IMG/VR virus record: IMGVR_UViG_3300024518_003743
Span: 1-62,867 of that record
From: a virus
Taxonomy: Duplodnaviria; Caudoviricetes
Direction: 5' to 3' (one strand)
Length of the DNA: 62,867 bases
The position numbers and the translations under genes were made by a program. The notes under the pieces are model-generated. The model worked only from the letters and a program-made list of their open reading frames with translations, made no database searches and was not told where the DNA came from. Shown in pieces: positions 54,459 through 59,666 of the stretch (position 1 is the stretch's first letter; the number at the start of each line of letters is the position of its first letter).

Positions 54459-54773
54459 ATGGAATGTGTATTCTGCGGGGACGACTCGCACAGCTACAGG
54501 GACTGCCCGGAGAAGATAACTCCTCACTCGTCCCACATCTACGCGACTCCCATGCGAGACCTCGAGAGAAAGAAGGGGGATTTGATTCTCCCGCCGGACA
54601 AACGAACTACCGCGCCGAAAAGAGCTCGCATAATCTCCGTGGATCCGAGAATAGAGGATTGCGAAGTGAAAGAAGGGGACGTAATACTATATCCAGCGAA
54701 CCTCGCCTGGAAAATGAATGATCGACTGTTTCGAATTTTCGAAGCAAACATAATGGGGATAATACCGGAATAG
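54459..54773 (+). CDS. GroES-like co-chaperonin with N-terminal CCHC zinc knuckle
   Basis: CVFCGDDSHSYRDC (CX2CX4HX4C); KKGDLILP...IISVDP...VKEGDVILY...EANIMGII. Confidence 0.7.
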   Translation: MECVFCGDDSHSYRDCPEKITPHSSHIYATPMRDLERKKGDLILPPDKRTTAPKRARIISVDPRIEDCEVKEGDVILYPANLAWKMNDRLFRIFEANIMGIIPE

Positions 54774-54774
54774 T

Positions 54775-54987
54775 ATGAGCAAAGATTGGATCCAAATAGA
54801 AACATGCAAGCAGGCAAACGACCGAGTAGCGGCAATGGTTGACATTGAAGCAATGAAGGCCGAGAACCAGATGATGGTACACCTCGGAAAGAAGCCTAAA
54901 TACGAATGGGATGACTTCAACGCCGTGAAGGTGCGGTACGACCTAGACTACACTGGACTTCTGAACAAGAAGAAGAAACTAGAGTAA
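54775..54987 (+). CDS. hypothetical protein
   Basis: 70-aa ORF. Confidence 0.55.
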   Translation: MSKDWIQIETCKQANDRVAAMVDIEAMKAENQMMVHLGKKPKYEWDDFNAVKVRYDLDYTGLLNKKKKLE

Positions 54988-54990
54988 TGC

Positions 54991-55013
54991 AAAAAGGGGC
55001 CTAAAAGGGCCCC
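54991..55013 (-). terminator. intrinsic terminator
   Basis: GGGGCC-CTTTTA-GGCCCC-TTTTT. Confidence 0.75.
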
Positions 55014-55124
55014 AGCTTGGTCGTGTTCCAGTCCTAGTGCTCAACCTCGGGTTTGACTTTGAAATCTTACCTCGGGAGCTCCGGTGTTTTTCCACCGCTG
55101 ATCGCTTTCGCATCCACAGCTTAC
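54991..55124 (-). ncRNA. candidate ~130-nt structured small RNA
   Basis: Promoter-like TATATTCG (55127-55134), hairpins GC-GAAA-GC and CGGTG-GAAAAA-CACCG, own terminator. Confidence 0.5.
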
Positions 55125-55139
55125 CACGAATATACAAAT

Positions 55140-55167
55140 AAAAAAGCACCAACCAATGGCTGATGCT
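55140..55167 (-). terminator. intrinsic terminator of tmRNA coding piece
   Basis: AGCATCAGCC-ATT-GGTTGGTGCT followed by a T run. Confidence 0.75.
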
Positions 55168-55309
55168 TCTTCTACAGACGTGTCGTGCCTATGGGACGTT
55201 TCTACGCCACAGCTCTAAGCTGAGGTGAGAAAAGAGGTATTACTTTTCCTGTTATAGGATCAGACTCTCGAAGTATACATTTATAATGCAGTCAAAACCA
55301 GTCGGCCCC
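55140..55309 (-). ncRNA. ssrA: tmRNA coding piece of a permuted two-piece tmRNA; tag (A)GKVIPLFSPQLRAVA
   Basis: Starts GGGGCCGACTGGTTTTGAC at 55309; resume context TATAACA|GGA; tag frame 55249-55202 ends GCT GTG GCG TAG. Confidence 0.85.
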
Positions 55310-55393
55310 AGTATAATCGCTTTACGTCATTACCTTTACACTCTTCCACAATGGAGATGAGGTTTGTCCTAGACGGGCAATACTGTTTTCTTG

Positions 55394-55450
55394 TGGAGCC
55401 GGAGGGTATCGAACCCTCGTCCAAACACCGTTTCTTCTCAAACGAATCTG
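55394..55450 (-). ncRNA. ssrA: tmRNA acceptor piece of a permuted two-piece tmRNA
   Basis: GGAC-GAGGG-TTCGATA-CCCTC-CGGCTCC-A; pairs with GGGGCCG to give a G3.U70 alanine acceptor stem. Confidence 0.85.
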
Positions 55451-55453
55451 GTG

Positions 55454-55461
55454 CAAATATA
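55454..55461 (-). promoter_or_regulatory. Bacteroidota -7 promoter (TATATTTG) for tmRNA precursor
   Basis: Exact TAnnTTTG 3 nt before the first paired segment of the acceptor piece. Confidence 0.7.
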
Positions 55462-55467
55462 ATAAAG

Positions 55468-55538
55468 TTCTCCGAGATAGATTCGAACTACCGTTTTCTG
55501 GCCCAAAACCAGACGTCCTGCCCCTAGACGACCGGAGA
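55468..55538 (-). tRNA. tRNA-Gln (anticodon TTG)
   Basis: Acceptor TCTCCGG/TCGGAGA, anticodon arm TCTGG-TTTTGGG-CCAGA, T arm GGTAG-TTCGAAT-CTATC; CCA not encoded. Confidence 0.9.
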
Positions 55539-55544
55539 GTTATG

Positions 55545-55618
55545 TCGGGGTGACAGGGATCGAACCTGCGACCTGATGCTCCCAAAGCACCCGCGCTACC
55601 AAACTGCGCTACACCCCG
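55545..55618 (-). tRNA. tRNA-Pro (anticodon TGG)
   Basis: Acceptor CGGGGTG/CACCCCG, anticodon arm GGTGC-TTTGGGA-GCATC, T loop TTCGATC; CCA not encoded. Confidence 0.95.
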
Positions 55619-55630
55619 ATTTACTACAAC

Positions 55631-55659
55631 AAAAAAGCCCCACTATAAATAGCAGGGCT
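55631..55659 (-). terminator. attenuator terminator upstream of tRNA-Pro/tRNA-Gln
   Basis: AGCCCTGCTAT-TT-ATAGTGGGGCT-TTTTT, about 12 nt before tRNA-Pro. Confidence 0.8.
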
Positions 55660-55687
55660 CCAAAGTATTGTATGCGCAACTGCCTTC

Positions 55688-55738
55688 CTATTCGGTAGTG
55701 GGTTGCGGTTGTTGAGTTTCAAATGAAATCTTCTTCAT
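55688..55738 (-). CDS. leader peptide MKKISFETQQPQPTTE (Gln/Pro-sensing attenuator)
   Basis: ATG AAG AAG ATT TCA TTT GAA ACT CAA CAA CCG CAA CCC ACT ACC GAA TAG; ATG 4 nt after promoter-like TACATTAG (55743-55750). Confidence 0.75.
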   Translation of the reverse strand: MKKISFETQQPQPTTE

Positions 55739-55751
55739 GGGGCTAATGTAC

Positions 55752-55823
55752 AAAAAAAGCCCCACATTCCCATGCGAGGCTTTTAAAATGATCGATAGTA
55801 AGTAGGCCAATACCGTTTGCGAC
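55752..55823 (-). ncRNA. candidate ~70-nt small RNA
   Basis: Promoter TACATTTG (55828-55835); terminator AAGCCTCGCAT-GGGA-ATGTGGGGCTT plus T run (55752-55784). Confidence 0.5.
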
Positions 55824-55851
55824 AAGACAAATGTAGTAAACTTTTCTTTAC

Positions 55852-55925
55852 AAAAAGAAACCCCTCTCCGAACAAGTCAGAAAGGGGTGTCGATTGAGGG
55901 CCCCGTGGGTGGGGCCTTTCACACA
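55852..55925 (-). ncRNA. candidate ~70-nt small RNA
   Basis: Promoter-like TACATTTA (55929-55936); hairpin GGCCCC-ACCCAC-GGGGCC; terminator ACCCCTTTCTGA...TCGGAGAGGGGT-TTCTTTTT. Confidence 0.5.
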
Positions 55926-55961
55926 CGGTAAATGTACGGAAATTTTCTTATCTTACACCTG

Positions 55962-56156
55962 ATGGCTACTTCACAAAATCTTCGACCAATATGCGTTTAC
56001 TGCGGTGAACCGGTCGCCCTGGCTTTAGTGAAGGATGGAAACAGACCTCCTGAGGGAGATAATTTCCTAGACTGGCACCATGTCAAGCATACATGTGAAG
56101 AGTCGGAGCAAGCCTTAAAGATCCGGAACGCTGGGAAGCCGCTTAAGGTTGTTTAG
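55962..56156 (+). CDS. small Zn-binding hypothetical protein
   Basis: CVYC...HTC; ATG at 55962. Confidence 0.5.
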   Translation: MATSQNLRPICVYCGEPVALALVKDGNRPPEGDNFLDWHHVKHTCEESEQALKIRNAGKPLKVV

Positions 56157-58939: not shown

Positions 58940-59617
58940 CTACTTTTCAAGATCCGACAAATGCTGCTCCGCCTCAAGAAGGGTCTCAAAAAATTTCTCC
59001 CGCATTCGACCATCCCTATACTTCTGTGCCTTAAAGCAATTTCCGTTAGTGTATATACCGGCGCTTACCCTCTCAAACTTCCCTCTAACAACCAAAGACT
59101 CCCCATAACTGCCGCCTTCAGTACCCTTAAAGTCGTTCGCCATTCTATTAAGCGTAGCCGGAATCTTAGGGTCCTTTTTAGCCTCTTCCATTTTCTGCTT
59201 CAGATCATCATAAGGAACATTCATCCCCTTCACCCTCTTGAACACAGCTGCACGGCTCACATCAAAGTGGTTCGCTATGTAAGCAACGCTCTTCCCCTGG
59301 CACAGCAACTCATAATCAAGAGGCACCTTAACATCAGAACCAACCTGCTCAAGCTTCTCAACGATAGAAGCCAGGTCAGTCGTGAACCACTCCCCATAAG
59401 TGCGGTCAGCATCAAACAACTCGTGCAAGCGCTTCTCAAGCTTCTCGCAATAAAACCGCAGCAACGGCCTAGTAGTATACTTCAACTCTAGCAAACAGCC
59501 CCCGGCGCACTGAAGGGTCTTCATCCTAGCGTGTACGTCCTGGCTAATCCCGATCTTCCTGATGCCAGCAGTTGCGTTCTCTATCACATATACCACCGAA
59601 GCCTTCTCTAAATTCAT
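58940..59617 (-). CDS. GIY-YIG (T5orf172/MUG113-like) protein with HTH domain
   Basis: VYVI...KIGIS...RMKTLQ...LEKRLH...GEWF; GKSVAYIANHFDVSRAAVFKRV HTH; ATG at 59617. Confidence 0.8.
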   Translation of the reverse strand: MNLEKASVVYVIENATAGIRKIGISQDVHARMKTLQCAGGCLLELKYTTRPLLRFYCEKLEKRLHELFDADRTYGEWFTTDLASIVEKLEQVGSDVKVPLDYELLCQGKSVAYIANHFDVSRAAVFKRVKGMNVPYDDLKQKMEEAKKDPKIPATLNRMANDFKGTEGGSYGESLVVRGKFERVSAGIYTNGNCFKAQKYRDGRMREKFFETLLEAEQHLSDLEK

Positions 59618-59666
59618 TGTAACTAGTTTTTTGGTTACAGCTAATGTAACCATTTTTTTAGTTACA
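59618..59666. promoter_or_regulatory. two palindromic operators TGTAAC-N10-GTTACA
   Basis: 59618-59639 and 59645-59666, around promoter-like TACATTAG (59641-59648, - strand). Confidence 0.65.

Follow-up and report, generated by a model that had tools for sequence, protein, structure and literature searches.

A putative codon-matched leader-peptide attenuator ahead of tRNA genes in phages of Flavobacteriia

The reason for which phages carry tRNA genes, and the timing with which they use them, is an open question that codon-usage compensation explains only in part. Phage tRNA clusters are viewed as compensating for codon usage or as countering defences that cleave tRNA (PMC12409363), and recent work points to such host defences. 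The stretch of DNA analysed here, which we call the window, is the whole linear record, 62,867 bases long, of a marine phage (completeness estimate 87%). On its minus strand, a promoter-like box, a short open reading frame (ORF) with a run of Gln and Pro codons, and a terminator stand in that order before genes for tRNA-Pro and tRNA-Gln. Could this arrangement be a transcription attenuator that senses the very tRNAs it controls? In the order in which they would be transcribed, its elements are:

55743 to 55753, minus strand: promoter-like -7 box, TACATTAG at 55750-55743, with TTG directly before it (sequence match)
55688 to 55738, minus strand: leader ORF MKKISFETQQPQPTTE, 16 codons plus a TAG stop, ATG at 55738
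55700 to 55714, minus strand: regulatory codons CAA CAA CCG CAA CCC (Q Q P Q P), the leader core
55694 to 55707, minus strand: region 1, the 5' strand of helix 1:2 (ORF nt 32-45), overlapping the last regulatory codons (minimum-energy folds)
55675 to 55694, minus strand: region 2 (ORF nt 45-64), stop codon included (folds)
55631 to 55661, minus strand: intrinsic terminator, regions 3:4, a hairpin of -15.7 kcal/mol plus T6 (fold)
55544 to 55618, minus strand: tRNA-Pro, anticodon TGG (ARAGORN; Rfam 63.4 bits)
55467 to 55538, minus strand: tRNA-Gln, anticodon TTG (ARAGORN; Rfam 51.6 bits)

The promoter-like box, the leader ORF 4 nt further on, and the CAA CAA CCG CAA CCC core at 55714-55700 all lie on the minus strand where a preliminary description of this DNA had placed them. 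The Bacteroidetes -7 box has the consensus TAnnTTTG, and TACATTAG agrees with it at seven of the eight specified or free positions, with one departure. An extended form of the box, TTGTAnATTnG, occurs three times in the window against an expectation of 0.59, and no -33 TTTG was seen upstream of the window's box. Since the ATG follows the box by only 4 nt, the transcript, judged by this predicted start, would be leaderless or nearly so. The leader frame is also the tail of a 45-amino-acid frame that starts with TTG (55688..55825).

The composition of the leader fits the tRNAs that follow it. By strict wobble, 4 of its 15 codons are cognate to the two downstream tRNAs, both of which are covered, and four of the five regulatory codons are among these cognates; the CCC codon is no strict-wobble cognate of anticodon UGG. 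When measured against the phage's own amino-acid usage, the presence of Q or P at 5 of 15 leader residues has a probability of P = 0.0053, and the uninterrupted Q/P run of five has P = 1.5e-5.

The strong terminator followed by tRNA-Pro(TGG) and tRNA-Gln(TTG) was confirmed by the hairpin with its T6 run and by ARAGORN and Rfam. The hairpin (55661-55634) contains 12 pairs, five of them G-C, with T6 at 55636-55631; it is separated from the leader ORF by 27 nt, and tRNA-Pro starts 18 nt past the first T of the run. Terminator-like sites are frequent in this part of the window, with 10 between 54500 and 57000 compared to 2.5 +/- 1.8 in shuffles. The preliminary description had named a constitutive promoter between terminator and tRNA-Pro as an observation that would speak against attenuation; the interval is 18 nt only and holds no consensus -7 box, and a search for TAnnTTTG from 55743 to 55462 (leader through tRNA-Gln) found none. 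The window therefore presents a terminator before the regulated genes with no later consensus promoter box, a short ORF near the predicted transcription start (16 codons, 4 nt), and regulatory codons tied to the supply of the operon (Q-Q-P-Q-P before tRNA-Pro and tRNA-Gln). Beyond the tRNA genes, a tRNA-like 3' piece at 55430-55392 was considered as a prophage attachment site and rejected, since it belongs to a permuted tmRNA, of which it forms the acceptor piece; a search with the exact tmRNA acceptor pattern returned one unrelated phage with a standard tmRNA.

Attenuation of the classical kind also calls for mutually exclusive helices. The fold of 55745-55625 reaches -34 kcal/mol (z = -3.07), a value equalled by one shuffle in 200. 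Helix 1:2, proposed as CGCAAC with GTTGCG, appears in the minimum-energy fold, and the segments CCCACTA and TAGTGGG, which had been said to pair, are exact reverse complements. The proposed 2:3 helix, GGCAG with CTGCT, was not the best available, as region 2 can pair either with region 1 or, through its nt 45-58 around the stop codon, with the terminator 5' arm to form an antiterminator. This last duplex, at -11.3 kcal/mol, is by itself no better than shuffles (p = 0.15-0.18).

The effect of a ribosome on these helices was modelled by masking a 29-nt footprint at each A-site position and then refolding. When the terminator 3' arm is absent from the transcript, the window's 5' arm pairs upstream at 0.08 without a ribosome; its occupancy is 0.0 while the A-site is on codons 2-6, rises to about 0.6 over T-Q-Q-P-Q-P-T, and is 0.1 once the A-site reaches the stop. 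The contrast between regulatory codons and stop was matched by 0 of 60 shuffles, and in this truncated-transcript model the window leader would behave as a classical attenuator. Ribosome-masked folding, which had been suggested as a check, gives the pattern expected of a switch in the truncated transcript; the full-length equilibrium model of the window shows no switch and keeps the terminator at nearly every ribosome position.

Relatives of the window phage were sought by DNA and protein comparison. Its portal is P22-like, and the adjoining 776-amino-acid protein is probably the large terminase, although a Pfam search with that protein matched no family. Metagenome homologues of the 776-amino-acid protein number 401, and an alignment of 30 homologues was used to gather relatives, from which 80 of 146 viral loci, 80 of 102 metagenome loci and 3 MAG contigs were taken in (one of these three with a tRNA, tRNA-Met only). 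Genes for tRNA or tmRNA are sporadic in this lineage, being present in 7 of 80 viral loci by ARAGORN and in 12 of 48 whole records by the Rfam tRNA model. Neither the portal nor the 776-amino-acid protein had a tblastn match in a phage collection that includes Calle_1, phi38:1 and Panino, and the window lineage is therefore distinct from these cultured phages. A DNA search of the window locus against the phage collection gave tRNA-Pro matches only, the neighbouring 95-amino-acid gene had no relatives among viral contigs, and a single-protein scan with the 776-amino-acid protein gave one short contig that extends away from the tRNA side. The window locus was identical in three seawater DNA runs, with no natural variation, and the remaining pieces in the read runs that match the locus are unrelated tRNA-Pro genes. 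A 421-nt contig from run X12 matches 55750-56000 and then diverges from the window, which hints that the module starts at 55750.

Eight further modules of the same build were found in five other phage genomes, each with a promoter box, a short ATG-started ORF, a hairpin with a T-run, and tRNAs within 6-31 nt. Pro/Gln-type clusters occur in two uncultured relatives, namely L027, a viral contig whose 776-amino-acid large-terminase-like protein is 46% identical to that of the window, and L201, a metagenome contig whose protein of this type is 62% identical. The L201 cluster comprises tRNAs for Ser, Leu, Leu, Ser, Pro, Gln, Arg and His, together with a Cys-like tRNA (44.3 bits) and a weak Tyr call. 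With this cluster as the query, blastn led to cultured Flavobacteriia phages, with matches in the Cellulophaga phages Calle_1, phi38:1 and phi40:1 (Pervagoviridae) and in the Maribacter phage Panino. Several of the module tRNAs are called at relaxed ARAGORN thresholds only. The nine modules, with some of the less certain calls in parentheses, are:

Window (W): leader MKKISFETQQPQPTTE; tRNAs Pro, Gln
L027: leader MRIKVSHTKLQQPKPLRRKGKPYVI; tRNAs Pro, His, Leu, Gln
L201B: leader MKKTNNIQRLQHLPMDITEWE; tRNAs Pro, Gln, Arg, His
L201A: leader MKKTTLYSFYCLLSSNRLELTM; tRNAs (Tyr), Ser, Leu, Leu, Cys, Ser
Panino P1: leader MKTQRLHQELEQPTNIGRDFYGVDGY; tRNAs Pro, Glu, Gln, His, Leu, Leu, Arg
Panino P2: leader MRAATGIAIIGRTKDKPLGRISVL; tRNAs Ala, Lys, Ile, Gly
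Calle C1: leader MKTIMNIATDIRTKGVKLLGRSRVL; tRNAs (Ala), Lys, Ile, Gly, Met, Asp, Thr, Val, Arg
Calle C2: leader MKTNMTYNNFSWYSNCSFSSYNVERLYLS; tRNAs Tyr, Ser, Ser, Asn, Trp, Phe, Cys
Calle C3: leader MNARLLHQEPLEQLRLPSRVSYHGIDELS; tRNAs Pro, Glu, Gln, His, Leu, Arg

In public records, these leaders stand as hypothetical proteins or are unannotated. The modules of phi38:1 differ from those of Calle_1 by 1, 2 and 7 bases, which leave the regulatory runs untouched. By ARAGORN, Calle_1 has tRNAs for 19 amino acids, to which a probable tRNA-Ala can be added, and the three cassettes of Calle_1 and phi38:1 together probably cover all 20 amino acids. The leaders fall into about three lineages, of CNN, UNN and ANN/GNN type. 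For this reason, the nine modules should not be counted as nine independent events, and the independent evidence consists of the three lineages and the gains and losses within them. The window itself is an example of such change, in that its tRNAs are limited to Pro and Gln and His, Leu and Arg codons are missing from its leader.

Leaders and cassettes change together. The preliminary description had proposed that leader codons should co-vary with downstream anticodons in related phages, and this held in the eight new modules. Under strict wobble, 88 of the 208 leader codons in the nine modules are cognate to tRNAs of their own cassette, and 47 of the 48 tRNAs are represented in their own leader (82 of 208 codons and 45 of 46 tRNAs when two weak tRNA-Tyr calls are dropped). 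Where a cassette has gained His, Leu, Arg or Glu tRNAs, those codons appear in its leader, and the leaders of the Tyr/Ser/Asn/Trp/Phe/Cys cassettes and of the cassettes for Ala, Lys, Ile, Gly and others are built of the same residues as their tRNAs serve. The longest runs of a cassette's own amino acids are 16 in C2, 14 in C3, 10 in P1 and 5 in the window. There are also leader codons for which the cassette has no tRNA, such as CGA in L027 and AAC in C1, and, in terms of amino acids, the match is poorest in L201B (P = 0.14; run P = 0.29).

Several comparisons argue that this match goes beyond codon bias. Tables of leader by cassette drawn up within a single genome cancel any genome-wide bias, and that of Calle_1, [[15,2,2],[5,17,3],[6,4,12]], has a chi-square p of 6.6e-7 (5e-6 without Tyr); the tables of L201 (Fisher p = 0.0054, or 0.011 without Tyr) and Panino (p = 0.015) are diagonal as well. 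For the first four modules, the probability of the observed matches under long-ORF codon usage was 0.013, 0.016, 0.0002 and 0.013, and the joint probability of match and coverage among 6496 decoy short ORFs from related phage DNA was 0.020, 0.033, 0.0009 and 0.024.

The geometry of the modules is also conserved. The distance from box to ATG is 4 nt in five modules (W, L027, P1, C2 and C3), 9 nt in two and 19 nt in one, and the Panino P2 leader is placed after a 49-amino-acid ORF. From the stop codon it is 21-29 nt to the hairpin in eight of nine modules (49 in C2) and 42-53 nt to the T-run in eight of nine, and from the T-run it is 6-31 nt to the first tRNA in all nine. A linker motif, ACAATACT, is conserved between ORF and terminator in W, P1 and L201A.

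Folding gave a less even picture. A long-range helix between the regulatory-codon region and the stop-codon region is present in the minimum-energy folds of all modules, and the distal part of the ORF is able to pair with the 5' arm of the terminator (-9.5 to -19.6 kcal/mol); the individual p values are 0.004-0.15, and the Fisher-combined p over the nine modules is 2.0e-6. In the full-length equilibrium model, L027, P1, P2 and C1 have a terminator probability of at least 0.93 without a ribosome, at most 0.2 at most N-terminal A-site positions, including most of the regulatory run, and about 0.9 at positions past the N-terminal part. The terminator is retained almost throughout in W, L201A, L201B, C2 and C3, and since the equilibrium model keeps it, a switch in these five would need kinetic control, which is accepted for trp attenuation. 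In truncated transcripts, the contrast between regulatory codons and stop beat all 60 shuffles in W, C1 and C2, was marginal in L027 (4 of 60 shuffles) and L201A (5 of 60), and did not rise above shuffles in L201B (19 of 60), P2 (26 of 60), P1 (43 of 60) and C3 (50 of 60); the combined p for the nine modules is 0.0027. In these models, then, the structural support for a switch across the modules is real but uneven.

This unevenness leaves some room for a different use of the same leader, in which translation senses the same codons and the stalled ribosome alters transcript cleavage or stability, access of RNase P or RNase E, or polymerase pausing, and in this way sets the amount of mature tRNA. 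Such a route would accommodate the five of nine modules in which the equilibrium fold model shows no switch, and the conserved linker noted above might have a part in it. It would also suit P1 and C3, where the antiterminator strand is 19-38 nt ahead of the stop codon and would stay uncovered by a ribosome halted there. We nevertheless regard this explanation as unlikely, given the canonical hairpin and T-run 6-31 nt before the first tRNA in every module, the complementarity between distal ORF and terminator 5' arm, which exceeds shuffles overall, and the window's own truncated-transcript model, which acts like a classical attenuator.

The codon runs might instead work as RNA, binding the anticodons of the cassette tRNAs directly in a T-box-like or sponge-like manner. 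An association of codon with anticodon is pairing by definition, and W and L027 have some leader nucleotides in common despite a difference in frame. Yet all nine runs lie in frame within an ORF that begins with ATG and stops 21-49 nt short of the hairpin, and three-base pairing requires a scaffold, to which no match was found. The Rfam search returned no leader family (Trp, His, Phe, Thr or Leu) at gathering score, the sole leader-family match being Phe_leader, which scores 19.4 bits where its gathering score is 55 (E = 2.2, 55750-55849, upstream of the ORF), and the T-box covariance model had no match up to E = 10 in 54900-56000. Direct binding of this kind therefore seems very improbable to us.

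Controls were directed at how often such elements occur away from tRNA genes, and how often tRNA genes occur without them. A scan for box, short ORF and terminator in the loci gathered by then gave 25 units, of which only the four modules already known are followed by tRNAs. Among the relatives, other tRNA genes had no module in 8 of 9 loci of one set and 13 of 13 of another; these genes are for Met, Phe, Glu, Asn, Asp and Thr, or are intron-like, and the tRNA-Met genes have a -7 box 3-7 nt before their 5' ends. Two Flavobacteriia MAGs had a hairpin with a T-run within 45 nt upstream at 2 of 23 tRNA cluster starts, and no leader ORF was seen at these two, one of which follows a protein gene while the other has no ORF. 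In viral contigs, the leader-core pattern gave 94 stretches, none of the 80 listed having a tRNA within 800 nt; the tRNA-Gln D-arm pattern and the L201 promoter-leader pattern gave 0 matches each; and among the 83 matches listed for the box-ATG pattern (80 loci), tRNAs follow only in the phi38:1 record itself. That the pieces are unrelated, with a chance small ORF, the terminator of an upstream transcript and tRNAs made by leaky read-through with no sensing at all, could be argued from the 21 of 25 units that lack tRNAs and from the public annotation of some leaders simply as hypothetical proteins, but it is scarcely credible in view of the codon-anticodon statistics, the conserved geometry, and recurrence in at least three phage lineages, with window proteins that have no tblastn match in the collection holding Calle_1, phi38:1 and Panino.

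We thus consider it likely that the element attenuates transcription by means of a leader peptide and the ribosome translating it, and that the tRNA genes under its control are those whose products decode its regulatory codons. In such an attenuator, host RNA polymerase would start at the -7 box, and the 16-codon leader would be translated from the 5' end of the transcript. With ample charged tRNA-Gln and tRNA-Pro, the ribosome would reach the stop codon and cover region 2, and the terminator would form before tRNA-Pro; in the absence of a ribosome, region 1 would pair with region 2 and the terminator would form too. Slow decoding of CAA and CCN codons would stall the ribosome on Q-Q-P-Q-P and mask region 1, leaving region 2 to pair with the terminator 5' arm and allowing the polymerase to read on into tRNA-Pro and tRNA-Gln. 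As phage tRNA builds up, decoding would speed up and termination would return, which amounts to negative feedback. Here we infer the transcription start, the translation of the leader, the stall-dependent read-through and the physiological trigger. Candidate triggers include late-infection demand, loss of host tRNAs and tRNA-cleaving defences, and it is a matter of speculation whether a host anticodon nuclease might be the trigger.

The most likely mechanism is therefore the classical, ribosome-mediated form of attenuation, in which the output would be new, namely tRNAs that decode the leader itself. Like the trpL, hisL, pheL, thrL, leuL and ilvL attenuators of amino-acid biosynthesis operons (see PMC1183508), the phage modules combine a promoter-proximal ORF of 16-29 codons bearing a regulatory run, a terminator before the regulated genes, and exclusive 1:2, 2:3 and 3:4 pairings, here predicted, that would be set by the position of the ribosome. 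Unlike them, they regulate tRNAs and not enzymes, their leaders mix up to nine amino acids where classical leaders use one or two, and they are phage-borne, with a predicted mRNA that is leaderless or nearly so, a Bacteroidota setting and no Rfam family match. The pheM leader of pheST is a close parallel, in that attenuation there senses one charged tRNA and the output is an aminoacyl-tRNA synthetase. Both systems would sense the supply of charged tRNA and control a translation component for the same amino acid, but the phage output is the sensed tRNA itself rather than a synthetase, giving direct feedback on the level of the tRNA. In T-box riboswitches, whose Stem I and T-box sequence are conserved, uncharged tRNA is bound directly and no ribosome takes part. 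As is proposed for the phage modules, they match a codon-like specifier to a tRNA, let terminator and antiterminator compete, and control genes that serve translation, whereas the phage codons lie within an ORF and match no T-box family.

With known phage tRNA clusters the modules have in common a phage-borne set of tRNAs. A search of main texts in the open literature found no attenuator or leader peptide described before tRNA genes. In its available excerpts, the Calle paper counts the phage's tRNAs only (PMC8776804), and those of the phi38:1 transcriptome paper describe a phage without its own RNA polymerase and leave the regulation of phage tRNAs unmentioned (PMC5335546).

We lean towards a general reading in which the tRNA cassettes of Flavobacteriia phages are self-regulating, each leader being written in the codons of its own tRNAs, so that decoding speed is sensed and only the limiting tRNAs are topped up. 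Judged by its sequence, the window would be a minimal Pro/Gln version of such a cassette. Because other Flavobacteriia phages show this design again, each time with codons that fit, phages with such modules probably limit the synthesis of these tRNAs to times of shortage. Cultured pairs that have the design are available, namely Cellulophaga baltica with phi38:1, Cellulophaga with Calle_1 and Maribacter with Panino, and direct bench testing is therefore possible.

If true, it would be the first case of an attenuator that yields the very molecule it senses, and it would provide phages with an on-demand response when host tRNAs are depleted, also where defence nucleases that cleave tRNA are the cause. 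A codon-matched attenuator before tRNA cassettes would mean that their expression is driven by demand and controlled by feedback, and leader-peptide attenuation would extend from metabolism to the tRNA pool. The leader sequence would, moreover, be a simple signature of the codons that are limiting for a phage.

Directly upstream of the leader module (promoter-like box, Gln/Pro leader ORF, terminator, tRNA-Pro and tRNA-Gln) lies a separate small unit; tRNA-Gln is followed by a circularly permuted (two-piece) tmRNA gene, recognized from an Rfam match together with its tag frame, and then by a further unit.

Features of the window around the leader module
55835-55751, minus strand: separate small unit
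55835-55828, minus strand: perfect TACATTTG box
55675-55662, minus strand: ACAATACT linker motif
55461-55140, minus strand: permuted tmRNA gene
55461-55454, minus strand: the tmRNA gene's own TATATTTG box
55172-55140, minus strand: terminator-like hairpin of the tmRNA unit
55137-54996, minus strand: third promoter-like site, TTGTATATTCG, then a G+C-rich terminator, downstream of the tmRNA terminator
55013-54996, minus strand: this G+C-rich terminator, at the end of the TTGTATATTCG unit
58940-59653, minus strand: 237-aa protein with a T5orf172/MUG113 domain
54459-54773, plus strand: 104-aa protein with a weak Cpn10/GroES match (Pfam, E = 8.6e-4, under the Pfam cut-off)

The Rfam tmRNA_permuted match covers positions 55433-55279 (E = 8.6e-8; 46.5 bits, just under the gathering score of 47), and ARAGORN did not call the tmRNA of the window. 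Its tag frame (55249-55202, minus strand) reads GKVIPLFSPQLRAVA followed by a stop, which resembles DKVINMFSPSLRAVA, likewise followed by a stop, a tag that ARAGORN did call in a relative. Further permuted tmRNAs were found in Maribacter phage Panino and at four other loci (L019, L020, L036 and L042). As for the unit beyond the tmRNA terminator, its TTGTATATTCG site is one of just three extended-box matches in the whole window, and an Rfam search of the unit gave no match. The RNA-gene island as a whole is flanked by the genes for the 104-aa and 237-aa proteins.

The small upstream unit is closed by a hairpin and T-run ending at 55751 and contains no convincing ORF; it may encode a roughly 70-nt small RNA. 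A contig of sequencing run X12 corresponds to window positions 55750-56000 with eight changes, and its similarity to the window ends at 55750, which would fit insertion of the tRNA module as a cassette.

Within the leader module, the ACAATACT motif between leader ORF and terminator is conserved in the first Panino module and in module L201A of a metagenome contig, and its counterpart in the third module of Cellulophaga phage Calle_1 is ACAATATC. The motif might mark a site of pausing or processing.

Positions of the ACAATACT linker motif in relatives
Panino, first module: about 2452-2470 of locus L284
L201A: about 4830-4817 of locus L201, minus strand

Several Rfam tRNA matches in relatives G006, G008, G009, G013 and G044 (loci L089, L092, L098, L101, L105 and L091) span 97-177 nt, carry large insertions in the vicinity of the anticodon and were not called by ARAGORN; these may be intron-containing phage tRNAs. 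In a cellular tRNA-Thr cluster of a Flavobacteriia MAG (L425), a perfect TACATTTG box leads directly into a small hairpin with a T-run and then the tRNA, with no ORF, a layout that might represent a different kind of promoter-proximal control.

Across the whole tRNA region of Calle_1 and Cellulophaga phage phi38:1, the tRNAs fall into three cassettes that sort roughly by first codon letter, namely ANN/GNN; UNN plus AAY/AGY; and CNN plus GAR. Feature-table coordinates for Calle_1 lie 52 nt below the tRNA positions in the locus sequence (Rfam, ARAGORN); those for phi38:1 agree with the sequence. Jointly, the three cassettes cover 19 amino acids (ARAGORN) and a probable tRNA-Ala, and the same partition by first codon letter recurs in Panino and L201.
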